This document shows positions 346-53,043 of a stretch of 64,000 bases of DNA, piece by piece (position 1 is the stretch's first letter; every line of letters starts with the position of its first letter). Where the stretch lies: the UHGV virus genome UHGV-0286546; one strand, 5' to 3'. The DNA is from a virus. A program made the position numbers and the translations under genes. The notes under the pieces are model-generated. The model ran no database searches, was not told the origin of the DNA, and was given only the letters and a program-made list of their open reading frames with translations.

Positions 346-954
346 ATGTCAAGCTTTAGAGAAATAGTAAATACTATTTTGAAGTCAGCTTTACTTGGTA
401 AAAATCCTAATGTTGAATCATTAGCTATTATTACAGCTGAAGATTCCTTTGGTAAAAAAATTAACAGAAGAGACAATGCTACTCGATTGAAAGTTTTTAA
501 GATACAATTGAAGCTAGGAGGTCATCCTTATGAAAACATTGTTGATAAATATGGAAATAAAGAGCATTCTTTTGTAATTTTTAATTTATCAAGATCTGCT
601 GCTAAAAATTATGCAAAAGTATATGAGCAAGAATCGTTTATTTTTGGCATAAAGAATAAAGATGACATGTTATATGAATATTGGGAAACTGTAGATAATG
701 GTAAAACTTATAATTTATCTAAAACTACAGATTTTATAAGAAATGAGCCAGAATTAGAAGATTATTTTTCTAGATTACATGATTATAAATTTAATATAGG
801 CTTTGATTTTAATGAATCTATCGACGAAGAAACTGTAAGAAAATTAGAATCTATTACGACTCCAGAAGATAAGAAATGGATTAAAGAATATATTAATGAA
901 GAACGTGTAGGTATGGCTTCTTATTTACATTATAAAAAGTTGTATAAAAATTAA
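346..954 (+). CDS. hypothetical protein; N-terminus MSSFREIVNTIL resembles the shared MSxFRTIVEN leader family
   Basis: Listed ORF 331..954 begins with TTG; in-frame ATG at 346 gives MSSFREIV... matching leader family of 8351/9124/9775/10557/47718. Confidence 0.5.
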   Translation: MSSFREIVNTILKSALLGKNPNVESLAIITAEDSFGKKINRRDNATRLKVFKIQLKLGGHPYENIVDKYGNKEHSFVIFNLSRSAAKNYAKVYEQESFIFGIKNKDDMLYEYWETVDNGKTYNLSKTTDFIRNEPELEDYFSRLHDYKFNIGFDFNESIDEETVRKLESITTPEDKKWIKEYINEERVGMASYLHYKKLYKN

Positions 955-2355: not shown

Positions 2356-2541
2356 ATGAAAGCAAAGAAAATGACAATATCGATTAAAATACCTAAACCT
2401 AGAGATTTTAATCATTATACCTTACAATTAAAAGGATTGATGAGAACGAAAGTAATTAAAAATAAAAAGAAAGAAATCAAGAAATTCAATTGGAAAAAAG
2501 ATAGTACAGATTATTCAAACATTATATTAGCTAGTGCTTAA
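2356..2541 (+). CDS. small basic protein
   Basis: ORF with SD gaggataa; lysine-rich. Confidence 0.35.
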   Translation: MKAKKMTISIKIPKPRDFNHYTLQLKGLMRTKVIKNKKKEIKKFNWKKDSTDYSNIILASA

Positions 2542-2562
2542 ATAATTTGTATTGTCTTCATT

Positions 2563-2650
2563 GGAGGAATGGCAGAGTGGCTTAATGCAGCGGTTTACTA
2601 AACCGTCGTACCGAAAGGTGCCGTGGGTTCAAATCCTACTTCCTCCGCCA
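2563..2650 (+). tRNA. tRNA-Ser (class II, long variable arm, G73), anticodon reads ACU as hand-folded
   Basis: Acceptor GGAGGAA/TTCCTCC, discriminator G, encoded CCA, long variable arm CGTACCGAAAGGTGCCG, T arm GGGTTCAAATCC; anticodon loop TTACTAA. Confidence 0.8.
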
Positions 2651-2657
2651 ATTTATT

Positions 2658-2751
2658 AGGTCTGTCGTTCAATGGTTAGGACACTAGGCTTATACCCTAG
2701 CGAGCGTCTGATTAACGCGAAATCCCAGTTCGAGTCTGGGCGGACCTACCA
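2658..2751 (+). tRNA. class II tRNA (long 23-nt variable arm, A73) with anticodon loop CTTATAC = anticodon UAU as hand-folded (Leu-like body, Ile AUA anticodon)
   Basis: Acceptor AGGTCTG/CGGACCT, D stem GTTC/GGAC, anticodon stem CTAGG/CCTAG, T arm CCCAG-TTCGAGT-CTGGG, A + CCA. Confidence 0.7.
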
Positions 2752-2776
2752 GTTTTAAATAAGAAAGGAAGTATAA

Positions 2777-2971
2777 ATGAGCACACGTCAAGAATATAAT
2801 AAAAAAATTTTAGCACATATTTCTGAAAAAATAGACCAGTGTTCAGATATGCGTTTTGTACAAATTCTGTGGGCATTGAGAATTGATGATGGACAAGATA
2901 ATTTCTACGAAGAATCGAAAGAAACGTTAGAAAAAGTAGAAAACAATCTAAAGAAAATTAATAACGAATAA
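2777..2971 (+). CDS. hypothetical protein
   Basis: ORF with SD aaggaag. Confidence 0.5.
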   Translation: MSTRQEYNKKILAHISEKIDQCSDMRFVQILWALRIDDGQDNFYEESKETLEKVENNLKKINNE

Positions 2972-2984
2972 TATTATTTCCGGT

Positions 2985-3013
2985 TTTACAATATTTTTAA
3001 CAAGACATATATT
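2985..3013 (+). promoter_or_regulatory. sigma70-like promoter GTTTTACA-N17-TATATT
   Basis: -35 TTTACA 2985-2990, 17-nt spacer, -10 TATATT; upstream of vWA gene. Confidence 0.45.
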
Positions 3014-3046
3014 TGTTTATAGATTAACAGAAAAAAGGAAGTGGAT

Positions 3047-4531
3047 ATGTCTGATAATAAAACAATGACTGAAAAAGGTGCTATTACTAATCAATCTACA
3101 TTAGACAAAGTTGTAGATTGGTTTTATCATGGAGCCGCATTACGTAGAGAAAAAAACAAAGACCGTATTATAGCTTTGTTTGATGATGCTTTTAAACAGG
3201 ATAAAACCAAAGCATTGCGTATTTTATTTTATATTCGTGATATTCGTGGTGGTCAAGGTGAAAGACGCATTTTTAGAATTTGCTTAAATCATTTGGCAAA
3301 AATAGAATCTGCTTGGTTAAAAGACAATTTGGCATTAATTGCTGAATACGGCAGATATGATGATTATTTGTGCTTGCTTGATACAGAAATTAAAAGTGCT
3401 GTAATTGATTTCGTTAAAGCACAATTAGATAAAGATATTGCTGCAATAGATAGCAATACACCTATTTCATTGCTTGCCAAATGGATGCCTTCCGTTACAA
3501 CCAAGAATAAAGAAAAAAGAAGATATTTAAATGCTCTTTTGAATTCTGGTAAATTTGGCACAGTAAAAAATTATAGACAAACGTTATCTAAACTTCGTGA
3601 TAAATTAAATATTGTTGAAAAGAATCTTTGCAATAAAGCCTTTGCTGAAATTGAATATTCTAAAGTTTCTTCTAATGCAATGTCTAAGTATTCAAAAACT
3701 AGAATTTCATCTGGATTAGCTGGTACTTTTTGGCGCAATGACTTAGATAGATTTAAAATGTATTTAGACGCTGTTAAAAACGGTAAAACAATCGACGGCA
3801 AAGAAGTAAAAATAAATGCAAAAACCTTATATCCATATGATGTTATTACAAAATATATGAGTGGTTATAGTATAAGTCATCAAGAAGATCCTGCAGCGGA
3901 AGCTCAATGGAATGCTTTACCTGATTATGTACCAGAGATTAACGGCATTGTAATTTATGATACTTCGGGTTCAATGTATGGATTACCTATGGCTGTATCT
4001 TTGTCGTTGGCTATTTATATTGCTGAAAGAAATAAATCAGAAGTTTGGCGTAATTATGTTATTCCATTCTCATCTAATGCGACTTGGAAAAAAGTAAAGG
4101 GTAACAATTTAGTAGAAAAAATTGAATCTATTTATACTGGAGATTGTTCAAATACTAATTTACAAGCAGCCTTTGATCTTATTTTAGGTAAAGCTATATA
4201 TGCGCAAGTACCTAAAGAAGATATGCCAAAACAGCTGATTATTATTAGTGATATGGAATTTGATTCGGTTTCTTCTAATAACCAAACTAATTATGAAGCT
4301 ATAAAAAGCAAATATAAGAAAGCTGGTTATGACTTACCACAATTAATCTGGTGGAACGTTGAATCAAGAAGCAATCAAACACCGATTACAGTAAATGATA
4401 AAAATTGTTTATTGCTTTCTGGCTGTTCACCGGTAGTTATGCAAGTAGCTTTGGGTGGTTCATACGATTTTATGGAAGCAATCGATAAAATTATTAACCA
4501 AGAACGTTATAGTTGCATCAATTATAATTAG
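3047..4531 (+). CDS. vWA-domain protein with N-terminal alpha-helical domain; Ro60/TROVE-like (DUF2828-type) architecture
   Basis: MIDAS motif DTSGSM ~residue 300 followed by second acidic motif ISDMEFD; N-terminal ~300 aa helical with FYIRDIRGGQGERRIF segment; 494 aa like Rsr/Ro60; ATG 3047 6 nt after SD aaggaag (GTG at 3041 also possible). Confidence 0.8.
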   Translation: MSDNKTMTEKGAITNQSTLDKVVDWFYHGAALRREKNKDRIIALFDDAFKQDKTKALRILFYIRDIRGGQGERRIFRICLNHLAKIESAWLKDNLALIAEYGRYDDYLCLLDTEIKSAVIDFVKAQLDKDIAAIDSNTPISLLAKWMPSVTTKNKEKRRYLNALLNSGKFGTVKNYRQTLSKLRDKLNIVEKNLCNKAFAEIEYSKVSSNAMSKYSKTRISSGLAGTFWRNDLDRFKMYLDAVKNGKTIDGKEVKINAKTLYPYDVITKYMSGYSISHQEDPAAEAQWNALPDYVPEINGIVIYDTSGSMYGLPMAVSLSLAIYIAERNKSEVWRNYVIPFSSNATWKKVKGNNLVEKIESIYTGDCSNTNLQAAFDLILGKAIYAQVPKEDMPKQLIIISDMEFDSVSSNNQTNYEAIKSKYKKAGYDLPQLIWWNVESRSNQTPITVNDKNCLLLSGCSPVVMQVALGGSYDFMEAIDKIINQERYSCINYN

Positions 4532-4650
4532 TTCTTAATAACTATTAAAGACTGTGAAAAACGTACAGCAATCTATAAAATATTTTATATTGAAGACTTG
4601 CTGTGTTTTAACAGCATGATAAGGTATTAATTTCGGTTAATACCTGTTTA

Positions 4651-4716
4651 TAAGGAAGGGCCGAAACAAAAGTTTTTCGTTAAAAGACAGTCTTTACGGT
4701 CCTTCCTTTTTTTTAT
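4651..4716 (+). terminator. rho-independent terminator (branched hairpin + T8)
   Basis: aaggaagggccg...cggtccttcc followed by tttttttt; two further hairpins at 4556-4650. Confidence 0.6.
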
Positions 4717-4728
4717 CAAAGGATAGGA

Positions 4729-4977
4729 ATGTTTACAATGTTAGATTTGCATAAAAAGTCAATATATAATAAAGAAGAATTGGATAAAGCAGATTTATGT
4801 GGATGTTTCTATTGCTGCGAAGTATTTGATCCGAGTGAAATAAAAGAATACACTGATAACGGAAACACTGCACTTTGCCCATATTGTAAAGTTGATTCTG
4901 TAATACCTCTTAATAAAAACGATGAAGAGTCTAAAGAAATTTTACAAAAAATGTATGGATATTTCTTTAAAGATTAA
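4729..4977 (+). CDS. zinc-ribbon protein (CxC...CC...CPYC)
   Basis: ORF with SD aaagga; four Cys pairs. Confidence 0.6.
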   Translation: MFTMLDLHKKSIYNKEELDKADLCGCFYCCEVFDPSEIKEYTDNGNTALCPYCKVDSVIPLNKNDEESKEILQKMYGYFFKD

Positions 4978-5057
4978 AATTTTATTTATTTTTTGTTTTA
5001 CATTTATATTCTATATTATATAAATATATTGTTTTTAAGTCAATATAAAAATTTTAT

Positions 5058-5131
5058 TCGGGGGTCGTCTAGTGGCAGGACATGAGATTTTGGCTCTCAT
5101 AACGTTGGTTCGAATCCAGCCCCCCGAACCA
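5058..5131 (+). tRNA. tRNA-Gln (UUG)
   Basis: Acceptor TCGGGGG/CCCCCGA, D stem GTCT/GGAC, anticodon stem TGAGA/TCTCA loop TTTTGGC, T arm GTTGG-TTCGAAT-CCAGC, A+CCA. Confidence 0.85.
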
Positions 5132-5153
5132 AAAATTGAAAGGAAAAGAAAAA

Positions 5154-5380
5154 TGAAGTTATATGATAGTGGAATTATTTTAGGTAGTGTAATTGCATTT
5201 ATGATATATGGAATAGGGTATATTATAAATGGAAAAATTAATGAACAGCCTAAAGTAGACTATCAAGAACAAAGAATTCTAAACGAAGGTTATGTAAAAA
5301 CTAATTATACAGAAGATCAAATTTTCTACAGTGATTACCAAGAATGTGTAGAATATAAAGATCATTTTTATTGTTATTAA
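5154..5380 (+). CDS. small membrane protein
   Basis: ATG at 5154 after gaaaggaaaag; listed ORF 5072 starts inside tRNA-Gln and is N-terminally over-extended; one hydrophobic helix. Confidence 0.45.
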
Positions 5381-5394
5381 TTTAGGAAGTAAAG

Positions 5395-5643
5395 ATGAAA
5401 AAAGTATTGTTAGGCATTTTTATTGTTTTATTGTTAACTGCTTGTGCTCAAGAAAGAGTACCGTACGTTAAAACAGATTGTAGAAATTGTAATTCTCAAT
5501 ATACCGTAAGAAAACCTGTAGAAATTGTATACGAAGAGATTACTTATACTACTGTTTATGAACCAAGAACATATGCTAAGACAAAAAGAGTAACGGTTCC
5601 ATATAAAAATTGTGAAAAAACTTATAAAAAATACTGTCGTTAA
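5395..5643 (+). CDS. putative lipoprotein
   Basis: Signal peptide with lipobox LLTAC; SD ggaag. Confidence 0.6.
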   Translation: MKKVLLGIFIVLLLTACAQERVPYVKTDCRNCNSQYTVRKPVEIVYEEITYTTVYEPRTYAKTKRVTVPYKNCEKTYKKYCR

Positions 5644-5730
5644 TAAAAAATTGCTTTACAAATAAAAATTTTATGATAATATAAATATATAAATTAAAAA
5701 AGAAGGGTTCTATAAACTATGATGAAAATG
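5641..5730 (+). promoter_or_regulatory. conserved promoter cassette TTGCTTTACA-N16-TAATAT plus leader (copy 1 of 2)
   Basis: ~80% identical to 11101-11190; followed by 19-codon ORF and terminator. Confidence 0.45.
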
Positions 5731-5810
5731 ATGTTTAAATATATTAGATTTTATAAACAGCTCAATCGAGGTGTATAATTTTCTATTACGTTTTTATCAG
5801 ATAGAATTTA

Positions 5811-5848
5811 AAAGCCTCGAGAATAAGAATCGAGGCTTTATTATTATA
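5811..5848 (+). terminator. rho-independent terminator
   Basis: gcctcga-loop-tcgaggc followed by T-rich run. Confidence 0.55.
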
Positions 5849-5855
5849 AGTTTTT

Positions 5856-5940
5856 GGTTGGGTCGCATAGCGGCAATTGCTGGAGACTGTAAATCTCTTC
5901 TCTTCGGAGTTCGTAGGTTCGAGTCCTACCCCAACCACCA
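5856..5940 (+). tRNA. tRNA-Tyr (GUA)
   Basis: Acceptor GGTTGGG/CCCAACC, anticodon loop CTGTAAA, long variable arm CTCTTCGGAG, T arm GTAGG-TTCGAGT-CCTAC, A+CCA. Confidence 0.85.
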
Positions 5941-5945
5941 TTTAT

Positions 5946-6023
5946 AGAGAGGTAACTCAGTTGGTCTAGAGTATTCGCCTGATATGCGAAGAGTCGTGAG
6001 TTCGAGTCTCACCCTCTCTACCA
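5946..6023 (+). tRNA. tRNA-Ile (GAU)
   Basis: Acceptor AGAGAGG/CCTCTCT, D arm ACTC..GAGT, anticodon stem TTCGC/GCGAA loop CTGATAT, T arm GTGAG-TTCGAGT-CTCAC, A+CCA. Confidence 0.85.
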
Positions 6024-6042
6024 AATTATTTAGGGAGCATTT

Positions 6043-6600
6043 TTGTTGAGTTATAACAGATTAAAAAATTTTAGAAAATTACGAAAACTAGCTATATTAC
6101 AAGGATTTGGCGGAAAATGTCAATGTTGTGGTTATAACAAATGCGTTCAAGCTTTAGAATTTCATCATTTAAATTGTAATGATAAAGAATTTTCTATTAG
6201 TACCATTATGAATAAAAACTGGAACGAAATAAAAAATGAATTAAAAAAATGTATTTGTGTGTGTGCCAATTGTCATAGAGAAATACACAATAATTTATTA
6301 GAAATTGATGTTAATAAACAATATTTTGACGAAAACGCCGTACAAGATTATGAATGTGCTATAAATAAGGTAACAAAATATAGCAAATGTCCAATTTGCG
6401 GAGCATTAAAACCAGAATATAACAAATTTTGTTCTCGAAAATGTGCCGCGAAATCAAGAGATAGAGTAAATTGGGAACAATACGAAAGTTTAGTTTATAT
6501 TATTGATAATAAAATTGAATCTATTAATAGTATTGCTTCTAAATTAAATATTTCTTGGCAAGCTGTAAAGAAAAGATATAAAAAATTAAAATCGCAATAA
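6043..6600 (+). CDS. HNH homing endonuclease
   Basis: HNH motif EFHHL...CANCHREIH with flanking CxxC pairs; TTG start after SD tagggag; inserted between tRNA genes. Confidence 0.8.
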   Translation: MLSYNRLKNFRKLRKLAILQGFGGKCQCCGYNKCVQALEFHHLNCNDKEFSISTIMNKNWNEIKNELKKCICVCANCHREIHNNLLEIDVNKQYFDENAVQDYECAINKVTKYSKCPICGALKPEYNKFCSRKCAAKSRDRVNWEQYESLVYIIDNKIESINSIASKLNISWQAVKKRYKKLKSQ

Positions 6601-6617
6601 AGATTTGAATTATTTAT

Positions 6618-6693
6618 GGTCATGTAGCTCAGTTAGTAGAGCACCAGACTGAAAATCTGGGTGTCGTTGGGGCGGAACCAACCGTGACCACCA
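6618..6693 (+). tRNA. tRNA-Phe (GAA) with non-canonical T-loop GGCGGAA
   Basis: Acceptor GGTCATG/CGTGACC, D arm TAGCTCAGTTAGTAGAGCA, anticodon stem CCAGA/TCTGG loop CTGAAAA, T stem GTTGG/CCAAC, A+CCA. Confidence 0.75.
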
Positions 6694-6699
6694 TTTATT

Positions 6700-6775
6700 G
6701 GAAGTATAGCTCAGCCGGTAGAGCAACGAGCTTTTAACTCGTGGGTCATGGGTTCGAATCCCTTTGCTTCCACCA
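6700..6775 (+). tRNA. tRNA-Lys (UUU)
   Basis: Acceptor GGAAGTA/TGCTTCC, anticodon stem ACGAG/CTCGT loop CTTTTAA, T-loop TTCGAAT, A+CCA. Confidence 0.8.
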
Positions 6776-6783
6776 ATTTTTAT

Positions 6784-6860
6784 GGCGATGTAGTTCAGCC
6801 GGTTAGAACGTATCCCTCATAAGGATAAGGTCACTTGTTCGAGTCAAGTCATCGCTACCA
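6784..6860 (+). tRNA. tRNA-Met/Ile2 (CAU), elongator type
   Basis: Acceptor GGCGATG/CATCGCT, anticodon stem TATCC/GGATA loop CTCATAA, T arm ACTTG-TTCGAGT-CAAGT, A+CCA. Confidence 0.8.
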
Positions 6861-6913
6861 TCTTTTTAAATTTTAAGTTCTAAACATAAAATGATTATTA
6901 CGGAGAAATTTTT

Positions 6914-7390
6914 ATGCCTAGAATTATAAAACATACAGATAAAGTTTTAGTAGAACGCTGTGAAAGTTATTGGTTAAGTCTACGACATGTAAATAGTTAT
7001 TTACCAGGGATAGAAATTTTTAAAAATCCGTCAAAGTCTGATCTTTTAAAAATGTTAAGACAAACATCTACAATACGAGGATTTGCTGATCACGAAGATG
7101 TAATTGTATGGAATGGAGAAGAAGAAATTCATGGTACAATCGAAAAGGCAATACGACAAAAGTATGGTGATGATACTTTTTCAGACGGTAAGCATAGGAT
7201 AGCAAGATTTCAAGTATTTAGAGATAAAAATAACCTTTTAGGATTTGAAGACAATGAGGGTCCCGATACAGATGAGGTAACGAATGAGTTAAAACAAACA
7301 CTTTTGGGTAACCCAAATTTCACTAAACTCTTTTCGAAAGAAGAAATACTAAATGCACAATCTCATCACATTATAGACGATGAAGAATAA
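6914..7390 (+). CDS. hypothetical protein; paralog of 10557..11102 and 47718..48302 (NPSK...IRGFAD...DVIVWNG domain) lacking the shared N-terminal leader
   Basis: Shared motifs ERCES, NPSK, TIRGFADHEDVIVWNG, KQTLLGNPNFTKLFSKEEILNAQSH. Confidence 0.6.
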   Translation: MPRIIKHTDKVLVERCESYWLSLRHVNSYLPGIEIFKNPSKSDLLKMLRQTSTIRGFADHEDVIVWNGEEEIHGTIEKAIRQKYGDDTFSDGKHRIARFQVFRDKNNLLGFEDNEGPDTDEVTNELKQTLLGNPNFTKLFSKEEILNAQSHHIIDDEE

Positions 7391-7452
7391 ATAAAATTGT
7401 TTTACTTTTATTAAAAATAATATATATTTATTTTAAATAGCTTTGCATTAGA

Positions 7453-7529
7453 GGATTCTTAGCTCAATTGGATAGAGCAATAGCCTTCTAAGCTATGGGT
7501 TGCAAGTTCGAATCTTGCAGAATCCGCCA
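7453..7529 (+). tRNA. tRNA-Arg (UCU)
   Basis: Acceptor GGATTCT/AGAATCC, anticodon stem ATAGC/GCTAT loop CTTCTAA, T arm TGCAA-GTTCGAATC-TTGCA, G+CCA then T7 run. Confidence 0.85.
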
Positions 7530-7548
7530 TTTTTTTATTATTTTCTGT

Positions 7549-7580
7549 TTTACATTTTTTAATTATGGTGTATTTTATTA
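7549..7580 (+). promoter_or_regulatory. sigma70-like promoter GTTTTACA-N17-TATTTT
   Basis: -35 TTTACA at 7549; -10-like TATTTT. Confidence 0.35.
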
Positions 7581-7589
7581 ATATCTGTT

Positions 7590-7830
7590 ATGGCGGAAGT
7601 ATAGACGCTAGATGGAGTGTGGAGAGAGGAAGTGAATCCGGAATAGCTTACCTCGCAGATGAAAAGAATACGGCCGAAAGCGGTGAATAATCGCAATCGG
7701 AGAAACCGTAGAACGGAGGCTCAGACGGGATGCAAACTAACCAATTAAGTCACAATTCGCGAAGTGATGTCATCGAGCCCAAAACAAAGACCACACGTTC
7801 TAAAGGGTTGGTATTTTCTTAATAGTATAT
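7590..7830. ncRNA. candidate structured ncRNA (GC-rich ORF-free island)
   Basis: ~240 nt with GC clearly above genome background, no ORF, downstream of promoter-like element and tRNA-Arg; analogous position to T4 small stable RNAs. Confidence 0.3.
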
Positions 7831-7887
7831 CATGGCTTTAGATAACAGATATTAACAAAGTATATAGTGAAAGGAATGAATAAATAG

Positions 7888-8295
7888 ATGTTGGAAAAAA
7901 TAAAAGAAAAAATTAAAGATTGGTGGTTTTCTAGAGATAGTATTTTTAATTTTTATTTCTCAATATCTTCATCTGGTATTTTTATAAATTTTACTATATT
8001 AGATTACGGTATAGATTTAGATATCACTATTCCGTGTATTCTTCCTAGCTTCTATATTAAAACCTTTTATGAAAAAGAACAAGAAATCTTTACAAATAAA
8101 TTTTGGGGTGAACAGTTTACATTTGTTTCTGATTTGCGTACAGAATTTGGTACAGGTTGGTTTGTTAATCAAGATCATGCTGGTTTTAGTGCTCAAGCGT
8201 CAATTTTAGGTTTTAATTATAGTTATGAATTGAGAGATACAAGGCATTGGGATTACTTTAAAAATTGCTGGAAGAGCTGTTCAGAAGATAAATAA
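7888..8295 (+). CDS. hypothetical protein
   Basis: ORF with SD gaaaggaatg. Confidence 0.5.
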   Translation: MLEKIKEKIKDWWFSRDSIFNFYFSISSSGIFINFTILDYGIDLDITIPCILPSFYIKTFYEKEQEIFTNKFWGEQFTFVSDLRTEFGTGWFVNQDHAGFSAQASILGFNYSYELRDTRHWDYFKNCWKSCSEDK

Positions 8296-8350
8296 ATAAG
8301 ACATTCTAAAGTTCTAAGTATATATTTGGTATATTTAGGACTTTTTATTT

Positions 8351-9106
8351 ATGAGTAGATTCAGAACAATTGTAGAAAATATCATAAAAACTTTTACAGA
8401 AGACGCGTTCTCAGACAGAGATAGATATAAAGAGGCAATTGATGTATATCTTAATGTATTAGATAAAATGGAACCGTCTCTAAATACAGATAAAATTATT
8501 ACAGATAGCGCAGAATGTGTCAGTTTACAAGTAGATACACCTCATGGTCCTCTAATTGTTAGTGTTTCTCTAGATAAAGATGTACATAATGCCGGTGTAT
8601 ATTATCCAGAATACAACGCTATTGAACTTAACATACACGGTATAATGGATTTGAGTGATGAAACTATAAACATGACAGATCCGATTACCGGTGAAGAAAA
8701 TGTTACAGGTATAAATGCTAAATACTTATATAAAATTTTATCTTCTCGTGCCGTTCAAGATACATTTATTCACGAATATACCCATTTTATAGATGATAAA
8801 ACAAAGTACTCCATGAAAAAGCAAGCAGATACATATAAAAATATAGATTATTTCAATAAACCTTACGAAAGAAATGCGTTTTATATTGCTTGGTTAAATA
8901 AAATCGTTTCATATACCTATAAAAAATATGGTAAAATAATGAAAGAGTTGACACCAGATGAACGATTAAATTTTTTAAGAAATGCTTGGAAAGAAGACGA
9001 AGAATTTGTAGAATATTATAATAAACTTGAACCTGCTGCAAAGAAAAGATTTATGTCAAGATTATATAATTATTTTAGTACTGATTTCTGGTCGGATGCT
9101 GCATAA
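8351..9106 (+). CDS. leader-family protein 1 (MSRFRTIVEN...), putative zinc metallopeptidase (HEYTH)
   Basis: Conserved N-terminal leader; HExxH motif TFIHEYTHFID. Confidence 0.65.
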   Translation: MSRFRTIVENIIKTFTEDAFSDRDRYKEAIDVYLNVLDKMEPSLNTDKIITDSAECVSLQVDTPHGPLIVSVSLDKDVHNAGVYYPEYNAIELNIHGIMDLSDETINMTDPITGEENVTGINAKYLYKILSSRAVQDTFIHEYTHFIDDKTKYSMKKQADTYKNIDYFNKPYERNAFYIAWLNKIVSYTYKKYGKIMKELTPDERLNFLRNAWKEDEEFVEYYNKLEPAAKKRFMSRLYNYFSTDFWSDAA

Positions 9107-9123
9107 CAAAAGGTAGATTTAAA

Positions 9124-9708
9124 ATGAGTAAAATAAGAACAATTATTGAAAATATCCTTTATGAAGGTGATAAAAAAATATTTGATAAAGAATCTGGATA
9201 CAATAGCTCTAAAGATGAGTTATATATTTATGATTTACTTAAAAAGAAATGGCCAGATGTTAAAATGAGCTATACCAGAGATGATTTTATTAATCCAGAA
9301 ACTCATCGTCATTTTCAATTAGATTTTTACGTACCTTCTGAAAATATGGGAATACAGGTAAATAAACATTGGAAACACGGTAGAAGAGTATATGATCCAT
9401 CTGATCCAAATTGTCAAAAAGATGTTCGTTGGTTAAAAAATAAAGGTGGAGATTTTTATAACAAAGTTTTGCATACCTGGACCGAATTAGATCCTATTAA
9501 ACGAGAAGTTGCAAAGCAAATAGGTATGAAATACGTAGAAATCTTTAATTTAGACGAATTTAATACTTGGTACAATAATCCAGAATTAACATACGAAGAA
9601 TATAAACAGGCTCCAGATTCTTTACAATACGACAGTGATGAATATTTTGCTGCAAAAGCTAATAATCGTGATATTTATGGTAATGATTCCGATCCGTTAG
9701 GTGCATAA
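9124..9708 (+). CDS. leader-family protein 2 (MSKIRTIIEN...); possible Vsr/DUF559-like nuclease fold
   Basis: Leader; segment FQLDFYVPSENMGIQVN resembles DUF559 core. Confidence 0.55.
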   Translation: MSKIRTIIENILYEGDKKIFDKESGYNSSKDELYIYDLLKKKWPDVKMSYTRDDFINPETHRHFQLDFYVPSENMGIQVNKHWKHGRRVYDPSDPNCQKDVRWLKNKGGDFYNKVLHTWTELDPIKREVAKQIGMKYVEIFNLDEFNTWYNNPELTYEEYKQAPDSLQYDSDEYFAAKANNRDIYGNDSDPLGA

Positions 9709-9774
9709 TTACGGTTTTACTTTTATTTTAATATAAATTATTATATATAAAATTTAAAATAGATAGGTATAAGA

Positions 9775-10530
9775 ATGAGTAAGTTTAAAACCATCGTAGA
9801 AAATGCATTATATGAAGTTGGAGCATTGCCTTTTCCAAAAAATATTCAAGTATATGCTAAAAAAGAAAAAGTAAATTTATTTGAAATTAAATATTTACGA
9901 AAAGATGGTAAATTGGATGAACCAGGTGGAATTTGTTATGCTAAAACTGGAATTTGGAAAGATATCCGTGAAAATGAAAATGCTTTTATACGCACGCAAT
10001 TAGATGAAAAATTTAGACCAGATCAAGGCAATTTTAGTAAATATCGTGGTGGTATGATTGTATTTGCTCTGAGTGTCAATACTGTCATTGATAAATTGAA
10101 TTATAATCAATTAGTTGCAGAAATTAAAAAGATTTGGTATACCTTAATAAACAATACCTTTAAAAATAAAATGATTAAAGGTGTAGTTAATTCTATGAAA
10201 AATACTTATGCTAACATTGAAGATGCAGAGATCGGAGGTATTACAATAGGTAATAACTTTAAAGGCATGTATTTTGATGGTAATAAAGTATATAATGATA
10301 AATCAACGAGTTTAGAAATAAATGACATTTCTAGTGAGATGTTGTTATTACTAGCTATTGAAATTTGTAAAGCATTTCGTCAAGATAGCGTTTTAATCAA
10401 AGATTTCAATAAAAATAAATTCTTTTTGTGTGATTCTGAAGAAGTAGAAGGCGAAATTCCAGAAGAAAAAATAAAAAACGCTTCTAAAGACTTAGCAAAC
10501 TTAAAGAATGTAAATACAAAAACAAAATAA
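9775..10530 (+). CDS. leader-family protein 3 (MSKFKTIVEN...)
   Basis: Leader conserved at protein and nucleotide level. Confidence 0.6.
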   Translation: MSKFKTIVENALYEVGALPFPKNIQVYAKKEKVNLFEIKYLRKDGKLDEPGGICYAKTGIWKDIRENENAFIRTQLDEKFRPDQGNFSKYRGGMIVFALSVNTVIDKLNYNQLVAEIKKIWYTLINNTFKNKMIKGVVNSMKNTYANIEDAEIGGITIGNNFKGMYFDGNKVYNDKSTSLEINDISSEMLLLLAIEICKAFRQDSVLIKDFNKNKFFLCDSEEVEGEIPEEKIKNASKDLANLKNVNTKTK

Positions 10531-10556
10531 TGTATGATTTAGCAGAAAGTATAATT

Positions 10557-11102
10557 ATGAGTAGATTTAGAACAATTGTTGAAAATGCTATTGCCAAAGT
10601 AAATAAAAAACTTTTAAAAGAACGTTGTGAATCGCTTTTTATAGCACCAATGAGTCTACATAATGATGAGCGAGAAGTAGTAGAAGTACTTTATAATCCT
10701 TCGAAAGCAGAATTCAATAGAGCATTTAGAGAATGGGGTACTATACGAGGACTTGCTGACAATGAAGATGTAATTATTTGGGATGGATATAAAGCTGTTC
10801 ATGATTCAGTAAAAGAACAATTAGAAAAACAGTATGGTGCAACCTTTCCAACTAATTACGGGACATTATGCAGATTTGAAACAACACGCGAATATCCATT
10901 AATGCTCGAAGATGATACAAAACAGTATAGTCATGGTAAAGAATTAGATCCAGTAAAGCAAACCTTATTTAAAAATCCTAACTTTACACGATTATTTTCA
11001 GAAGAGGAAATACTAAATGCTGATTCTCATAATTTTGCTAATGGAGAATTCGGTGAGTTTCAAAATGATCCAGAAATATTAAAAAAGTTTGGATATGATT
11101 AA
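10557..11102 (+). CDS. leader-family protein 4 (MSRFRTIVEN...), NPSK/IRGLAD domain paralog of 6914..7390
   Basis: ATG 10557 after listed upstream extension; paralogy motifs. Confidence 0.6.
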   Translation: MSRFRTIVENAIAKVNKKLLKERCESLFIAPMSLHNDEREVVEVLYNPSKAEFNRAFREWGTIRGLADNEDVIIWDGYKAVHDSVKEQLEKQYGATFPTNYGTLCRFETTREYPLMLEDDTKQYSHGKELDPVKQTLFKNPNFTRLFSEEEILNADSHNFANGEFGEFQNDPEILKKFGYD

Positions 11103-11190
11103 AAATTGCTTTACAGATATAAAATTTTATGATATTGTATAAATATAAAATAAAAAAGAGAGTTCTATAAATTATGATTAATACGAATAT
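11101..11190 (+). promoter_or_regulatory. conserved promoter cassette TTGCTTTACA-N17-TATTGT plus leader (copy 2 of 2)
   Basis: ~80% identical to 5641-5730; followed by 21-codon ORF (11174-11239) and terminator. Confidence 0.45.
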
Positions 11191-11275
11191 TTTACATTGT
11201 TGGTGTCATCATTTACTTCACAGAGGTGTTGATGCTTAGTTATACGTGTTAATTCATAAAATTATTAGTTTCAAG

Positions 11276-11309
11276 CCTCTAGGATAATTACTTTCTAGAG
11301 GTTTTTTTA
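11276..11309 (+). terminator. rho-independent terminator
   Basis: cctctag-loop-ctagagg then T8. Confidence 0.6.
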
Positions 11310-11313
11310 TTAT

Positions 11314-11387
11314 GGACTGTTGGTAGAGTGGTTATACGTTAGTCTGCAAAACTAATTACACAAGTTCGAATCTTGTACAGTCCTCCA
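11314..11387 (+). tRNA. tRNA-Cys (GCA)
   Basis: Acceptor GGACTGT/ACAGTCC, anticodon stem TTAGT/ACTAA loop CTGCAAA, T arm ACAAG-TTCGAAT-CTTGT, T+CCA. Confidence 0.8.
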
Positions 11388-11430
11388 ATTTTACGCATAG
11401 AAGTATATATCAATAAAATGGTCTATTCTT

Positions 11431-11506
11431 GTGTGCGTAGCTTAATTGGTAAAGCGTCGGTTTGTGGTACCGAAGGATACGAGTTCGAATCTCGCTGCTC
11501 ACCCCA
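11431..11506 (+). tRNA. tRNA-His (GUG); no encoded G-1, one U-U mismatch in acceptor
   Basis: Anticodon stem TCGGT/ACCGA loop TTGTGGT, D arm GCTT-AATTGGTA-AAGC, discriminator C + CCA. Confidence 0.7.
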
Positions 11507-11512
11507 CTTTAT

Positions 11513-11586
11513 AGGGACTTAGTTTAATGGTAAAACACTAGTCTCCAAAACTAGATATAGGAGTTCGATTCTCTTAGTCCTTGCCA
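11513..11586 (+). tRNA. tRNA-Trp (CCA)
   Basis: Acceptor AGGGACT/AGTCCTT, D arm GTTT-AATGGTA-AAAC, anticodon stem CTAGT/ACTAG loop CTCCAAA, T-loop TTCGATT, G+CCA. Confidence 0.8.
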
Positions 11587-11589: not shown

Positions 11590-11940
11590 CTAACGATATT
11601 TAAAGTATAATGTATCTGCTTCATATCTTATTCTGTTATAACGTATTATATTTTTTACATCTTCTATATCAGAGTCTGGAACAGTAAACCATTCACCACG
11701 CATTTTATAATTTTTACGACGTAATTCTCTATGTATTAATCTTTCGATTTTAAGTAAATGATTTCTTTCACATTCAAATTCTTCAGTAAACAATAACACC
11801 AAATCATTCGGATGTCCGGTTTGTAATTCTTTTATTCTTTTATTAGGATCTTTAGATATACCTACTTTTATATGACCGTTATTATCTCCAATCATATACA
11901 TATAATCTAAAGGTTGTATTTCATCATTTATTATTTGCAT
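11590..11940 (-). CDS. GIY-YIG-like (T5orf172/MUG113-type) nuclease
   Basis: GHIKVGISKDPNKRIKELQTG motif typical of T5orf172 GIY-YIG variant; adjacent to tRNA cluster. Confidence 0.65.
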   Translation of the reverse strand: MQIINDEIQPLDYMYMIGDNNGHIKVGISKDPNKRIKELQTGHPNDLVLLFTEEFECERNHLLKIERLIHRELRRKNYKMRGEWFTVPDSDIEDVKNIIRYNRIRYEADTLYFKYR

Positions 11941-12050: not shown

Positions 12051-12842
12051 ATGGTTAAAAACTATTACGAAATATTAGAAGTACATAAATTTGCTTCAGA
12101 TACTGAAATTAAGCGTGCTTTTTACAAGTTAGCTAAAAAGTATCATCCTGACATTAACCCTAAAACAGCAAACTTATTTAAAGAAATTAATGAAGCTTAT
12201 CATGTTTTAATTGATCCTAAACTAAGACGTGAATATAATAACAGCTTAAATACAGAAGTTCCGTTCACTTTAAACGAAGATATTTTTAAATCCTCTGAAA
12301 ACGATTCATTAGTAGATATTCTTAATAATGTAACCAAACAAACAGAAGACCTGAATAAAGAATTAGAAGAACTTATAAACTCTTTTGATTACTTTGAAGA
12401 TGGACAATACTACTATAATCCAGAAAAAGAAAGTATCTTTAGAATTATAGATGAATTTAAAACATTTAGATTTGAAAACGCTGTTGCTGCCATATGGAAT
12501 AGAAATGCAATTAGTATCTTCGGCGCGGCATTTGTTTTCCTGCTGAGTTTTATTTGTATTTTGTTTACTAAACCATTTAAACTCTATAAACATCTTACTT
12601 ATAAAAAACGTAACTTTGCTTGGTTAAATCATATTTCCAGATTAACTAAAGAAAATAAATTGTTTTTTACATTGTGCTGGACTATTATCTTAAATATTTT
12701 TAGCGTAAGTAGGCTAATTTATAATATTTTATATTCTACTGTATGGATTTTCAGTAAGATTTTAAAATACTTCTTGATTCCAGCCGCTATTATATTTGCT
12801 GCCACATTTAGAGTTGCTTTCTATAATCCAACAAGAAGATAG
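12051..12842 (+). CDS. J-domain (DnaJ-like) protein with C-terminal hydrophobic segments
   Basis: YYEILEV...[15 protein letters not shown] (HPD motif); C-terminal half with 2-3 predicted TM helices. Confidence 0.8.
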
Positions 12843-43300: not shown

Positions 43301-43985
43301 TGTCTCCTTTCATGTCAGATCCATCCCAAGGTCTACTTGCATTTATATATGAATCTAATGGTCTAAGATTTTCTAATGCCCAACACTTTTTAAAATCTTC
43401 ACAATATATGTCTGTAATATTAAAAGTATTTACTGGTCTAATATGATCTATTTGCCAAGTTTCTCTTAGTCCTTTAGCTGTTAAACCAAGATTATCCCAA
43501 CTCATCCAATCTTCAAACTGACTCTCTAAATGCTTTTCTAAATCTTGTATACTATATCCTAATATATTACGTATACTATCATCTTTTTTATTTATAAGCG
43601 ATCTTCGTACTGCCGTCGATATAATGCATCTTAATTTATATCCAATATCACTAGCATACCTTTCATTTTTCCATTTACGATTATACTCGGCTTTTATCTT
43701 TCTTTGCTCTTCAGTCCTATTCTTATGCCATTTTGAAGCTTCTTTCTTATGTGTTTGGTAATATTCCTTTTTATAATCAGGGTTATTCGTTCTAAACCTT
43801 TCATTTTCTTTTTTAATTTTTTCAGGATACTTCATACAATACCTTTTACGTGCAGCTAATACCTTTTCCCTATTTGCTCTCTTCCATCTACGATTCCTTT
43901 CATTCTTTATTAATCTAGCTCTTTCTAAAGGATCTTCTACACTAATAAACATCTCTTCTATACCTTTATATAAATCATCAGTCAT
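43290..43985 (-). CDS. HNH endonuclease
   Basis: WQIDHIRPV...ALENLRPLDSYIN motif; basic N-terminal half. Confidence 0.7.
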   Translation of the reverse strand: MTDDLYKGIEEMFISVEDPLERARLIKNERNRRWKRANREKVLAARKRYCMKYPEKIKKENERFRTNNPDYKKEYYQTHKKEASKWHKNRTEEQRKIKAEYNRKWKNERYASDIGYKLRCIISTAVRRSLINKKDDSIRNILGYSIQDLEKHLESQFEDWMSWDNLGLTAKGLRETWQIDHIRPVNTFNITDIYCEDFKKCWALENLRPLDSYINASRPWDGSDMKGDNDE

Positions 43986-44187: not shown

Positions 44188-45771
44188 TTAGGCGTGAGCT
44201 TGGTTGAAGTTAGCAATAGCACCACGTACCAAGTACTCAGGCTTATTGATGAACAAATCATAGAAAGACATAGCGCCTTTGTGATTCTTCAAATTAGGAG
44301 CTTGGAAAGTAGGTGTGAAATAGAGCGGGATCCACTCAGCTAAAACAATTGCCGAATCACCTAACTGGAATCCTTTGAAACCGAAGACAACCTGATCAAC
44401 CGGTAATGTCTTAGTATAAGGAACAGCGATAACAGCAATAGTACCGTCACGCAATGTACCAGCTAAGTAAGGTCCAATCGGTTTCTTAGCTTCAGGAGCT
44501 GCTTTGAAACCTTCGATTTGTTCTACGATTGTTAAACCTTGACGAGCAGAAACAATCATGAATTCAACTGTACCACGACCAGCAACTTCTTGGATAATAC
44601 CACGAGCACTAGAAATAGTAGTTGTATAAGCAGAATATCTCTGTTGTAAGGTTAAGTTAGCACCGTTTGCAGCACAATCAAATGTCAAATCAGCGTTCGG
44701 AGTAGCAGCAGCATATACACTGTGGATCAATGACAAATCACGTTCCCAACGAATAGTACCAGCAATTTGGTTAGCAATCAATTCATCAGTGTCAATTGCT
44801 AAGTGAGCGTTCATTACCAAACCAGCTGCAACACTGTAAGAACTCATTAACGGGTGCTGCTTAGCTAAAATAGGCTGATTAGGAATATCGAACTGAATCT
44901 TACGAATCAAATCAACATCTGTTTCAACATCAACAGCAGCTTCGAAACTCAGCATAGCATTCTCAGCAATAGCATCAGCATACATAGTAGCATCCAATTT
45001 CAATGTAGCTACACCAGTCTGAGCATTAACTGTACCAGAAACACCACGACCAATTACATTGTATGCACCACTGTTAACACCATCCAACTGCGCAGAACCA
45101 TTACCATAGTCACGTGCAATCTCTTTACCTGCTAAACGAACGATGAACGAACCAGCACGTACTTTAACTGTAGCATCAGAAGGCAATGCAGCAGACGGAT
45201 TAGCAGTTACATCAGCAGTAGCCTGAACATCTGTATACCCAATGAACTCAGAAGAATACGTACCATCTGTCGGATTCTCAAATACAATGTCACCAGCTTC
45301 AACACCAGCAGCGTCTTGAGAATAACGTGTTTTGATGATGAAGATTTGGCCAGACTGACGATCTAAAGCTTGAATATCAGCAATGTAGTTTGCTACCATT
45401 TGCGGATAAAATACATTAACGATATCAACGACTTTAGGAGTCAAGCTTGCAACACCAGGGCTGAGCAAAGAAACAGCAGAAGTAGAAGCGTTACCGCCAA
45501 AATCTTCGTGCAGGATATTGCGACCTGTGTAAGGAGTATCTGGCTGTTGAGCGATGTATTCAGCAGTATTTTCTAAGAGCTGAACCATAGTAGCGGCTTG
45601 GTATTTAGCTTCTTTAGAGTCAGATTCCAGAGCTTTTACGAGAGCCGGGCAGCGTTTGCCGAGAGTAGATTCACTGAGAACTTCTGCAGCGTGAGCGATA
45701 CCTTTATTGATTCTTTCGCTACGGGCTTTAGCAACCAGTGACTTATTTTCAACTTTGGTTAAGATAGACAT
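44188..45771 (-). CDS. major capsid protein, T4 gp23 family
   Basis: 527 aa; segment SGQIFIIKTRYSQDAAGVEAG and C-terminal GFKGFQ resemble T4 gp23 (from memory); Ala/Gly/Thr-rich, GC-richer codon usage; N-terminal LTKVEN putative protease site; SD aggaaa. Confidence 0.7.
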   Translation of the reverse strand: MSILTKVENKSLVAKARSERINKGIAHAAEVLSESTLGKRCPALVKALESDSKEAKYQAATMVQLLENTAEYIAQQPDTPYTGRNILHEDFGGNASTSAVSLLSPGVASLTPKVVDIVNVFYPQMVANYIADIQALDRQSGQIFIIKTRYSQDAAGVEAGDIVFENPTDGTYSSEFIGYTDVQATADVTANPSAALPSDATVKVRAGSFIVRLAGKEIARDYGNGSAQLDGVNSGAYNVIGRGVSGTVNAQTGVATLKLDATMYADAIAENAMLSFEAAVDVETDVDLIRKIQFDIPNQPILAKQHPLMSSYSVAAGLVMNAHLAIDTDELIANQIAGTIRWERDLSLIHSVYAAATPNADLTFDCAANGANLTLQQRYSAYTTTISSARGIIQEVAGRGTVEFMIVSARQGLTIVEQIEGFKAAPEAKKPIGPYLAGTLRDGTIAVIAVPYTKTLPVDQVVFGFKGFQLGDSAIVLAEWIPLYFTPTFQAPNLKNHKGAMSFYDLFINKPEYLVRGAIANFNQAHA

Positions 45772-45839
45772 AGTAGTTTAATTTCCTATATTAAGTTTTA
45801 AGTTAAACGTTTATATATTTTTAGTTTTTTGTATAGATA

Positions 45840-46620
45840 GTATGTATTTATATCTATGTCCAGAGTAGTGTAAAGATCCCGTAGGATGGGAAACTTAGTA
45901 TTAGTTATTTAATTAGAACAGTATATTTATGATAAAGTAGTGATTTGGAAGAATTTTTTTGTAAATTTTTTTATTTTAGTTGTATATGTAGGTATATATG
46001 TGGAGTATTTGGGTTAATGTAAGTATGTTATCGTATATATGAGTAGTGTAGTATATAGTAGATAAAAGGTAACGTGATGAGATTGTATGTAGTTATATGG
46101 TGTATGTGTATATATAGGTTGTAGGAATTTTTAGGAAATGTGTCGGCGTAGGTAGATTGTGATATATAGTGGGTATGTATGATTGTAGATAATTGGTTTT
46201 ACGTTTACTGTATTACATGGTATAGTAATGGTAATAATGAAATGAATGATATGAGAGGATGAGCTACGTATGCTGAAAAGAGAATATAGAGAGGTATTAG
46301 GTACAGTATTAAGGAATGATATAGCGGAAGCACTTGACTTATTTACTGGTATTTGGTCAAGTGGTATATATAGAGTTGGTGTAGATAAAGGTGTTGAAAA
46401 AAGATATAATATAGATATAGTATGTAGTAAAGACCAGTATAAAAGAGTTAGAGAGTATGTAGAAGAGGCATATAATTTTAATGAAGAGAAGTTAGTATTC
46501 GATGAAAGTTATTTTGATAGTGCGCATTATTGTTATTCAGTTAGTGAAGAGAAGTTAATGCAGATTTATAGTTTACTTAGAATTAAAGGATATACGATGA
46601 ATTAATCCTAATGTATGGTA
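45840..46620 (+). repeat. C-depleted (G/T/A) alternating purine-pyrimidine tract spanning divergent promoter region and gene 46270..46605
   Basis: Top strand almost C-free; runs of TG/TA alternation (gtatgtgtatatatagg etc.). Confidence 0.55.
46270..46605 (+). CDS. LRIKGY-family small protein (array B, first member) encoded in C-depleted DNA
   Basis: C-terminal ...LMQIYSLLRIKGYTMN. Confidence 0.55.
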   Translation: MLKREYREVLGTVLRNDIAEALDLFTGIWSSGIYRVGVDKGVEKRYNIDIVCSKDQYKRVREYVEEAYNFNEEKLVFDESYFDSAHYCYSVSEEKLMQIYSLLRIKGYTMN

Positions 46621-47717: not shown

Positions 47718-48302
47718 TTAGGCAACATTTACTGATAATCCGGTTTTTCTTAACCAAGTATTAAAATCGTCTTTTTCATGAGGCGGTTTGTCATCGTAAC
47801 AGTATTTATCAGCTTGTTCTTTTGTTAAACCGTAATTTTTTATAGTCCATTCTCTAGGTTGATATTCACTACTACAACTCTGATATGCGTCATAAAAGTT
47901 TTGTATATCGAAGAAAGATAAATTATTTTGTGGAATCATTTCTTTATGTGCGTCTATTATTTCTTGTAAGCGTGCATTTGGTGTTCCTCTTACTTGTAGA
48001 TTTCCATTATTATCTTCATCAAACATTGTATGTACTTCACTATCGGTTAATTCACCATATTCTTCCAATGCACTTATCAAATTATCATGTAACCAAACAT
48101 CAGCATCAACAACATATATATTTTTATCAGTAGCAATTCCTCGTATTGAATTAAATCTTGTATTACTTTTAAATGAAAAATATTCATAAGGACTAGGATT
48201 TTTTAGTACAGTTAATATTTCATTTTCATCAAACCAAGTAGGTACTCTTAATATTTTAGTTTCTAACAATATACCTTCTACTATCTTTCTAAACTTTGAC
48301 AT
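47718..48302 (-). CDS. leader-family protein 5 (MSKFRKIVEG...), NPSP/IRGIAT domain paralog
   Basis: Leader and NPS..IRG..VVDA motifs shared with 6914 and 10557; only minus-strand gene in this region. Confidence 0.6.
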   Translation of the reverse strand: MSKFRKIVEGILLETKILRVPTWFDENEILTVLKNPSPYEYFSFKSNTRFNSIRGIATDKNIYVVDADVWLHDNLISALEEYGELTDSEVHTMFDEDNNGNLQVRGTPNARLQEIIDAHKEMIPQNNLSFFDIQNFYDAYQSCSSEYQPREWTIKNYGLTKEQADKYCYDDKPPHEKDDFNTWLRKTGLSVNVA

Positions 48303-48457
48303 AATACACGCCTTCTAGTAATAATTTTCACAATATTTATTAGAACCTATGTTAATATTTATCGAATAGACAATCTGTTTTACTTTATTTGTATTTGTGG
48401 TATAGTAAATAAAAATAAATACTTGTTTTGATATGTAAAAAAAAAGGAATGTGTATA

Positions 48458-51917: not shown

Positions 51918-51926
51918 AGGTTGGCA

Positions 51927-52621: not shown

Positions 52622-52659
52622 ATTAAAAGAATTAGAATTAGTAAAAGGATGACAACGTA

Positions 52660-52998: not shown

Positions 52999-53043
52999 CA
53001 GAATGCAGTGAAAAATTTAGTACAATAAAGTGAAAGTAAAACA

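Follow-up and report, generated by a model that had tools for sequence, protein, structure and literature searches.

The 64,000-nucleotide stretch of viral DNA analyzed here, UHGV virus genome UHGV-0286546 (the window; 30.4% GC), carries between positions 8,351 and 11,102 four consecutive genes whose products open with a common short leader peptide, and two further genes with this leader lie elsewhere in it. The N-terminal consensus, M-S-(K/R)-F-(R/K)-x-(I/L)-(V/I)-E-N-(I/A)-(L/I), starts six open reading frames (ORFs), those at 346, 8351, 9124, 9775 and 10557 on the plus strand and that at 48302 on the minus strand. All six shared N-termini are present where an initial annotation, made from the letters alone, had placed them. 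The leader genes, and a leaderless paralogue of two of them, are as follows (aa, amino acids).

8351..8392, plus strand: leader-coding segment (14 codons); equivalents start at 346, 9124, 9775 and 10557 (plus) and at 48302 (minus)
8351..9106, plus strand: leader gene 1, MSRFRTIVENII with a 251-aa cargo having a conserved HExxH...E (H141, E142, H145, E173)
9124..9708, plus strand: leader gene 2, MSKIRTIIENIL with a PD-(D/E)xK/Vsr-like cargo, assigned from motifs only
9775..10530, plus strand: leader gene 3, MSKFKTIVENAL with a 251-aa cargo, sub-threshold S-AdoMet_lyase match (21 bits)
10557..11102, plus strand: leader gene 4, MSRFRTIVENAI with a cargo of the NPSK..IRG family
47718..48302, minus strand: leader gene 5, MSKFRKIVEGIL with an NPSK..IRG paralogue; the capsid gene is 2 kb away on the same strand
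346..954, plus strand: leader-variant gene, MSSFREIVNTIL, Asn in place of Glu9, with a DUF3293 cargo
6914..7390, plus strand: leaderless NPSK..IRG paralogue, N-terminus MPRIIKHTDKVLV, with the same promoter-like motif upstream as leader genes

A regular expression for the leader, run over the six-frame translation, matched six times, each time at the start of an ORF, where 0.005 matches were expected from 200 shuffles. Past residue 15 the cargos are unrelated by BLASTP, as the initial annotation had held, with the exception of the NPSK..IRG paralogues (10557, 47718-48302 and 6914). Its further statement that conservation extends to the nucleotide level is true of one pair of genes but not of the others: a 30-nt DNA pattern of the leader has two matches in the window (8351 and 10557) versus none expected, and these two segments are identical at 28/30 nt, whereas the remaining pairs agree at 15-26/30 nt. 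The Ser2 codon is AGT in four of the six leader genes and TCA in two, and relatives add TCT for Ser and CGG and AGG for Arg, otherwise AGA, while the amino acids are kept. The 60 nt 5' of each leader gene in the window, including the region of the ribosome-binding site, are mutually unrelated. Since leader codons vary and the upstream DNA is unlike, conservation acts on the peptide and not on the DNA or the 5' untranslated region, which removes the alternative of a conserved initiation context that had been raised at the outset.

The leader was followed across the lineage by degenerate DNA scans of IMG/VR and a metagenome collection, by searching 1.84 billion representative proteins with a profile and in other fetched loci; a padded leader profile matched mostly N-terminal fragments, and the first DNA pattern gave no matches. 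The census contains 50 distinct proteins with the leader, always at residue 1, and single linkage sorts their cargos into about 16 groups. In a logo of 36 leaders, M1 is found in 36/36, S2 in 32, F4 in 34, R/K5 in 36, I/L7 in 36 and E9 in 33, followed by V/I/L at position 8, I/A at 11, L/I12 (35/36) and E14 (19/36). Conservation breaks off past residue 14, so that the shared block, first put at about 10 residues, is indeed shared but is 12-14 residues long. The (L/I)xE pattern read at the leader end, which resembles the cleavage sites of T4-type prohead proteases, is borne out: 47/50 leaders have [ILVM]-x-E at positions 7-9, a second such site is present at about 12-14 in 30/50, and one ending between positions 7 and 17 is found in 49/50. 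Two of the leader types without Glu9, P0013 and the MSEIRNRIMKVLQES type (L129), retain L-x-E at 12-14.

The leader is a portable N-terminal module, because it stays N-terminal whatever follows, linkers vary, leader classes swap and its predicted helix is detached from the fold. Within the nuclease-like family the leader abuts the domain directly in the 9124 product, is joined to it by linkers of 5-20 residues in P0015, P0006, P0020 and L021, and is separated from it by an extra 190-aa domain in P0017 and P0021. In AlphaFold2 models of two different cargos, the first 21 or 24 residues form a helix of low confidence that stands apart from the fold; for the 8351 product the predicted local distance difference test score of residues 1-21 is below 50. 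Homologous cargo carries the first leader in L008:5542 and a leader of a second class, with the consensus M-N-K-Y-I-x-x-F-(K/R)-E-A-x-x-K-L-E-E, in L006:5911, and this occurrence of one cargo under either leader indicates leader swapping. The second class is not present in the window. A broader form of it, M(x)NKY(I/V)(K/Q)xF(K/R)E(A/S)(V/C)xKL(E/N)E, was seen in relatives on at least seven different cargos together with the same promoter motif (L005:9511(-), L006:5911(+), L006:1722(-), L012:7154(+), L012:6109(-), L016:4190(-) and L132:1344(+)). The products of L016:6644-7276 and L006:5911-6573, which belong to different cargo families, have in common a basic C-terminal module, QGNSW(V/T)NKGKEGTHGTFKTKKQADxQRKAMFANGYKG.

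The window also encodes a capsid protein of the Gp23 family, as the initial annotation had stated.

44188..45771, minus strand: major capsid protein, Gp23 family (Pfam PF07068 7e-23, PHROG 138 4e-26)
45505..45516, minus strand: codons of capsid I86-L-H-E89, predicted as the prohead-protease site that closes the delta-domain; 12 relatives and QdP_Psa3 conserve it

No DNA match to cultured phages was found, the best capsid match among them being that of Pseudomonas phage QdP_Psa3 with 34.5% identity; the phage collection searched holds no cultured member of the lineage, and an exact-sequence look-up of the capsid protein returned no record. IMG/VR yielded 15 capsid relatives with 56-85% identity; their contigs measure at most 231 kb and have 26-35% GC. 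SRR31127831 contains a near-identical contig. An alignment of 13 capsids of the lineage with that of QdP_Psa3 has a variable delta-domain of about 90 residues, then a conserved (I/L)-L-(H/T)-E|(D/A), then the mature domain. I-L-H-E89|D is likely the capsid maturation site, where cleavage would take place as in T4 gp23. The N-terminus MSIL(T/K)K(I/V)E(N/D) of the lineage capsids is leader-like, and MSILTKVEN is present in the window protein, but this LTKVE|N, to which attention had first been drawn, is probably not the maturation site, given the conserved site at E89.

A gp21-like prohead protease had been proposed as a check on the leader. None was found in the 64-kb window by tblastn with the QdP_Psa3 protease, by Pfam on 104 ORFs or by a hidden Markov model (HMM) of S77 peptidases, and the same searches found no protease adjoining the capsid gene in relatives. 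Searches of the collections gave proteases of other lineages only, among the matches listed. The QdP_Psa3 gene adjoining that for the capsid encodes a 705-aa 'head maturation protease' whose N-terminal domain is gp21-like and whose nearest database homologue carries Pfam Peptidase_S77. A scan of the loci from the leader census did reveal such a protein: in L140, which is one phage with L021 and L228 (IMG/VR contig 3300028591_005933), a 938-aa product has a gp21-like domain at its N-terminus (S77 HMM 6e-27; PHROG 207 'head maturation protease' 1.3e-15) and the motifs NQNGRIYS, ADEHPEG and GTSIRGVG. It shares 42% identity with the protease domain of QdP_Psa3, and among its matches are also genes for 'prohead core scaffold and protease' in Campylobacter T4-like phages. 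Two genes 5' of it lies a leader-tagged orthologue of 9124 (60% identity). The 231-kb contig L231 (IMGVR_3300028591_000079), which also carries the capsid relative L014, has a protease 52% identical to that of L140 (Pfam Peptidase_S77 4e-4, under the curated cut-off). Such a protease is thus encoded by the leader-bearing L140/L228 and on the capsid-bearing L231, and judged by these matches a gp21-type protease is present in the lineage. In L140:2251-5067, L231:9998-12433, L001:12793-14910 and QdP_Psa3 the gp21-like domain is fused to an acidic, low-complexity C-terminal extension of 500-700 residues, which probably makes these proteins protease-scaffold fusions.

The gene order of the relatives places leader genes in the head module. 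In L228, L229 and L231 the portal gene (PHROG 213) is followed by two small genes, large proteins, leader genes and a 264-aa gene, and onward by the protease/scaffold fusion, a 240-aa coiled-coil-like gene and a muramidase. Orthologues of the window genes 9124, 8351 and 9775 thus lie in these three loci between the portal and protease genes. The slot in L229 holds a leader-tagged 9124 orthologue (71%), a leader-tagged 8351 orthologue (44%), a gene of the SAM-lyase (S-adenosylmethionine lyase) family and a leaderless 9775 orthologue (49%). In L129 three tandem leader genes stand directly 5' of the 264-aa gene, and leader-bearing ORFs adjoin the capsid gene in several relatives. Judged from this order, the leader cluster of the window is the counterpart of a cassette array within the head-morphogenesis module, because its orthologues fill the portal-protease slot in relatives.

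The motif GTTCT(A/T) plus an AT-rich 10-mer was recognized by k-mer enrichment and inspection of upstream regions. The copies in the window are listed below.

8311..8326, plus strand: promoter-like motif GTTCTAAGTATATATT, 40 nt upstream of 8351
6877..6892, plus strand: promoter-like motif GTTCTAAACATAAAAT, upstream of the leaderless 6914
48331..48346, minus strand: promoter-like motif GTTCTAATAAATATTG, upstream of the 48302 gene
45904..45919, minus strand: promoter-like motif GTTCTAATTAAATAAC, about 148 nt upstream of the capsid gene
5707-5722 and 11162-11177, plus strand: further copies of the motif

Within 120 nt upstream, GTTCT(A/T) was found for 10/18 leader genes versus 31/470 other genes (Fisher p=1.6e-7), and most of the leader genes without a motif of their own stand further downstream in tandem clusters. 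In 9/10 loci, the window included, the capsid gene has the motif no more than 300 nt upstream, and in L228, L230 and L231 the motif precedes both the protease gene and the next, 240-aa (scaffold-like) gene. It is a candidate class-specific, perhaps late, promoter of the lineage. T4-like late promoters (TATAAATA or TATATAA) were considered as well and rejected, being too frequent in DNA of 30% GC to inform. The capsid gene's strand is also that of 14/15 leader genes located within 10 kb of it, versus 26/281 other genes, counts that are not independent because loci are related and genes tandem. On the motif and the strand, leader genes would appear to be co-expressed with head genes.

Modularity, selection on the peptide, the (I/L)-x-E sites, the Gp23 capsid, the protease of the lineage, the position in the head module, the motif and the strand lead us to consider it likely that the leader M-S-(K/R/Q)-F-(R/K)-x-(I/L)-(V/I)-E-(N/S)-(I/A)-(L/I)-x-(E) acts, in a T4-related lineage of uncultured low-GC jumbo phages, as a capsid-targeting sequence (CTS) of the T4 type. 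The leader genes would be transcribed along with the head genes, and the short amphipathic leader helix would bind the scaffold or the protease in the scaffolding core of the prohead during assembly, with enclosure of the fused protein as the result. A gp21-type serine prohead protease would then cut after Glu9 ((I/L)7-x8-E9), and the second site, (I/L)12-x-E14, present in about 60% of leaders, may also be cut. The mature cargo, freed inside the head, would enter the host, ejected with the DNA, in parallel to T4 internal proteins (IPs) I-III and Alt.

The CTS of T4 IPI, IPII, IPIII and Alt was described by Mullaney & Black 1996, with reviews in PMC9026906 and PMC3012670. T4 gp21 makes its cuts after L/I-x-E, the IP propeptides have 10-19 residues, and mutagenesis assigned residues 4 and 7 to targeting and residues 8 and 10 to processing (PMC9026906). 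The T4 leaders are MKTYQEFIAE in IPII and IPIII and MKTFKEFTSTTTPVSTITE, i.e. MKTFKEF...ITE, in IPI. In T4 as here, a short N-terminal leader (10-19 aa) is common to otherwise unrelated small proteins, with an aromatic residue at 4, a hydrophobic one at 7 and an (L/I)-x-E end (F4 in 34/36 and I/L7 in 36/36 of the present leaders, where these two are among the best-conserved residues). Both have a Gp23-family capsid in the phage and a gp21-type protease, here in the lineage. In both, leader genes stand beside a tRNA cluster with homing-endonuclease-like genes, and the cargos are orphan and fast-evolving; the T4 genes ipI, ipII and ipIII flank a tRNA cluster which contains segB. The present system differs in that the predicted cut is after residue 9, possibly 14, rather than 10, in the number of its cargos (six in the 64 kb and, counted as groups, about 16 across the lineage, versus three to four in T4), and in the second, interchangeable leader class of relatives and the long acidic scaffold-like tail fused to the protease of relatives. 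Its lineage is distant (Pfam Gp23 7e-23; best isolate capsid 34.5% identical) and known here from sequence alone. The leader would be either analogous to the T4 CTS or diverged from it beyond telling.

Among phiKZ-like giant phages, head-internal proteins are cut after Glu by a diverged gp21 homologue (the proteases phiKZ gp175 and SPN3US gp245), and their propeptides have been inferred to target the prohead; SPN3US gp53 and gp54 have identical N-termini (PMC5694885, PMC9026906). Those propeptides are mostly 80-130 residues long with an (S/A/G)-x-E motif, and no one short leader extends there over many unrelated cargos. The cargo-loading peptide of encapsulins is another case in which a short tag suffices to load diverse cargo into a shell of the HK97 fold; unlike the leader, it is usually C-terminal, binds the shell directly and is not cleaved off by a protease, and its compartment is non-viral. 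To our knowledge, T4 and its close relatives are the only phages in which experiments have demonstrated short capsid-targeting sequences.

Several observations weigh against the leader being a capsid-targeting sequence. By eye it has no significant similarity to MKTYQEFIAE, with pattern and length alone in common. Glu9 is missing in 3/50 leaders (Asn in 346, Tyr in P0013, Lys in L016:8174). The main cluster (8351-11102) is on the strand opposite to the capsid gene and among tRNA genes. The window lacks a prohead protease, as said, and it is from relatives that we infer one in this particular genome. The promoter-like motif also precedes two groups of tRNA genes in the window, two of its copies sharing GTTCTATAAA(C/T)TATGA, and its 'late' label comes solely from its association with the capsid and protease genes. 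Core binding, cleavage, presence in the virion, ejection and the anti-defence role of the cargos are all steps that we infer. Finally, the leader helix is amphipathic and basic (hydrophobic moment ~0.65-0.69), which also suits binding to a membrane or to other proteins.

This last property, in a short helix detached from the fold, would be expected too of a general interaction or localization tag unrelated to the capsid interior, whether a membrane helix, a degron, a chaperone peptide or a tail/baseplate tag. A membrane helix leaves the invariant acidic residue in (I/L)-x-E unexplained, and for a tag of any of these kinds one would not anticipate leader genes between portal and protease, a promoter motif and strand in common with the capsid gene, or a leader-like N-terminus on the capsid protein itself. 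We regard a tag of this sort as unlikely.

Basic amphipathic N-terminal presequences are also what enzymes of the mitochondrial processing peptidase (MPP) type cleave off, and the window encodes both an M16 peptidase (59955-61184) with an intact HxxEH (Pfam 7e-42) and a DUF2201 metallopeptidase (32741-34117). The leader could in principle be a presequence cut by one of these in a process outside the head. The Glu in (I/L)-x-E, however, fits gp21-type proteases and not the Arg-2/Arg-3 rules of MPP, no related locus was seen to have M16 co-occurring or linked with leader genes, and the gene to which they are linked is instead that of an S77-type protease. We give a presequence of this kind very little credence.

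The 28/30 nt shared by 8351 and 10557 might suggest that the 5' end acts as nucleic acid, either as a regulatory RNA or translation-initiation element or as a recombination patch, with a functionless peptide. Conserved CTS-coding DNA in T-even phages may aid the shuffling of IP genes. Most pairs in the window nevertheless agree at only 15-26/30 nt, the codons vary (AGT/TCA/TCT; AGA/CGG/AGG) with the amino acids kept, and the upstream DNA is unrelated; recombination may be an added consequence without explaining the conservation, and a role as nucleic acid alone is highly improbable. That the shared N-terminus is a mere relic of common descent or of a recent 5'-end duplication, with no common function, is the least probable of these explanations, since, although the window genes are tandem and two are paralogous, the leader is kept on about 16 cargo groups and on contigs with capsids diverged to 56% identity, and its conservation stops sharply after residue 14.

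As a capsid-targeting sequence, the leader would probably represent the principle of the T4 CTS in a distant lineage, the new elements being that the leader differs in sequence and that the cargos are far more numerous. If this is true, tagging of arbitrary proteins for encapsidation and injection would be a general strategy of gp21/gp23-type phages, and the leader would be a sequence signature with which to mine metagenomes for injected anti-defence or host-takeover candidates. About 16 orphan protein families would become candidates against restriction, BREX and similar systems, and a second portable tag would be available for loading foreign proteins into phage heads. Tentatively, one may go further and suppose a large, fast-diversifying effector-delivery system of rumen and gut jumbo phages, with at least two interchangeable leaders, a shared C-terminal module and at least a dozen co-injected cargos, a putative zinc protease, nuclease-like proteins and SAM-lyase/DUF3293 proteins among them; we find this possible but somewhat doubtful. 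If it were so, the injected anti-defence arsenal would go far beyond the three IPs plus Alt of T4.

The cargos themselves have few database matches. PDB sequence searches with four of them found nothing, and Pfam searches on the cargos of 10 relatives gave DUF4116 as the sole match. Orthologues of the 8351 product that bear the leader are found in L016:4406, L132, L229:6872 (44% identity) and P0027, and HExxH and a Glu 28 residues downstream are invariant across all homologues aligned. The peptidase-like motif pointed out in the initial annotation is thus conserved, but the cargo has no database match and no convincing match in a fold search; it is a putative zinc protease (zincin-type) from HExxH plus the downstream Glu. 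IMG/VR searches for close relatives of this protein and of a DUF2828 protein in the window gave nothing useful.

The orthologues of the 9124 product in L021/L140 (60% identity), L229 (71%) and L231 (47%, with the protease gene directly downstream) belong to a family with a D...E-x-K-like nuclease motif that is degenerate in several members. Its nuclease-like domain is present in Prevotella Lak megaphages in 4-7 copies per genome at 28-29% identity (L260, which is Lak-C1, and 14 other Lak genomes), and the leader was checked for and is absent from these homologues. The 9775 orthologue, L229:8282-8959, is 49% identical and without a leader; the match of the 9775 cargo to Pfam S-AdoMet_lyase, 21 bits, is under the curated cut-off of 28. 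For the 346 cargo the match to Pfam DUF3293 (27.1 bits) is just over the cut-off of 25, and its orthologue P0004/L031 starts MSRFREIVNT. In the leader-gene array of a relative, L229:7713-8285 matches Pfam S-AdoMet_lyase (43 bits, 5.5e-11) and also DUF3293. Together with the DUF3293 match of 346, this hints at depletion of SAM as one cargo activity. An anti-defence role of the cargos is plausible by their likeness to T4 IPI*, an analogy and not a finding.

For the 10557 gene, an alternative in-frame ATG at 10530 (10530-10556) overlaps the stop of the upstream gene and would place nine extra residues before the leader; this start is used by the database gene call P0009, and a 64%-identical homologue, P0012, begins MSRFRT. 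The paralogue at 6914 does lack the leader, as first noted, but the leader acquisition drawn from it cannot be polarized, loss being equally possible. An Alt-like ADP-ribosyltransferase identity of the NPSK..IRG family was considered and rejected on the criterion of the ADP-ribosyltransferase fold.

The main leader cluster is embedded in the following array.

2563..11586, plus strand: array of 12 tRNA genes

Homing-endonuclease-like genes lie amid these tRNAs at 11590-11940 (probably T5orf172/MUG113 matches) and at 6043-6600 (by eye). In the relative L229, positions 2475-4739, just after the portal gene, encode a 754-aa protein with a Pol-beta-type nucleotidyltransferase domain and a GTTCTA motif upstream, possibly another virion-packaged enzyme.

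A gene-free spacer of 499 nt (45772-46270, minus strand) precedes the capsid gene; its sense strand has 20 G, 115 C, 208 A and 156 T, and this G-depleted spacer is possibly a long unstructured 5' leader. On the 3' side of the capsid gene are conserved co-oriented genes (window 42323-43985, minus strand; L006 11790-13497; L014 11682-13043) for a 231-aa HNH-like protein (probably a NinG Pfam match) and a 325-aa Zn-ribbon protein, and nearly all other neighbours are on the opposite strand.

Elsewhere in the window, between 38612 and 55576, a paralogous family of about 100 aa ending in ...L(R/K)I(K/E)GY(L/M) has at least nine copies by regular expression (e.g. at 38612, 38913, 40106, 40449, 46270, 49998, 50305, 51093 and 55271), and a neighbouring sub-family at 51540-53388 has 'Y(R/K)TLYRI' near the C-terminus. 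Unusual auxiliary genes include, besides the M16 peptidase at 59955-61184, those for a DUF2828/DUF7788 protein and a DnaJ-domain protein (loci 3041-4531 and 12051-12842). At 30976-32208 and 32741-34117, a likely AAA-type ATPase, so judged from its sequence with no Pfam match, adjoins the DUF2201 metallopeptidase/VWA protein.

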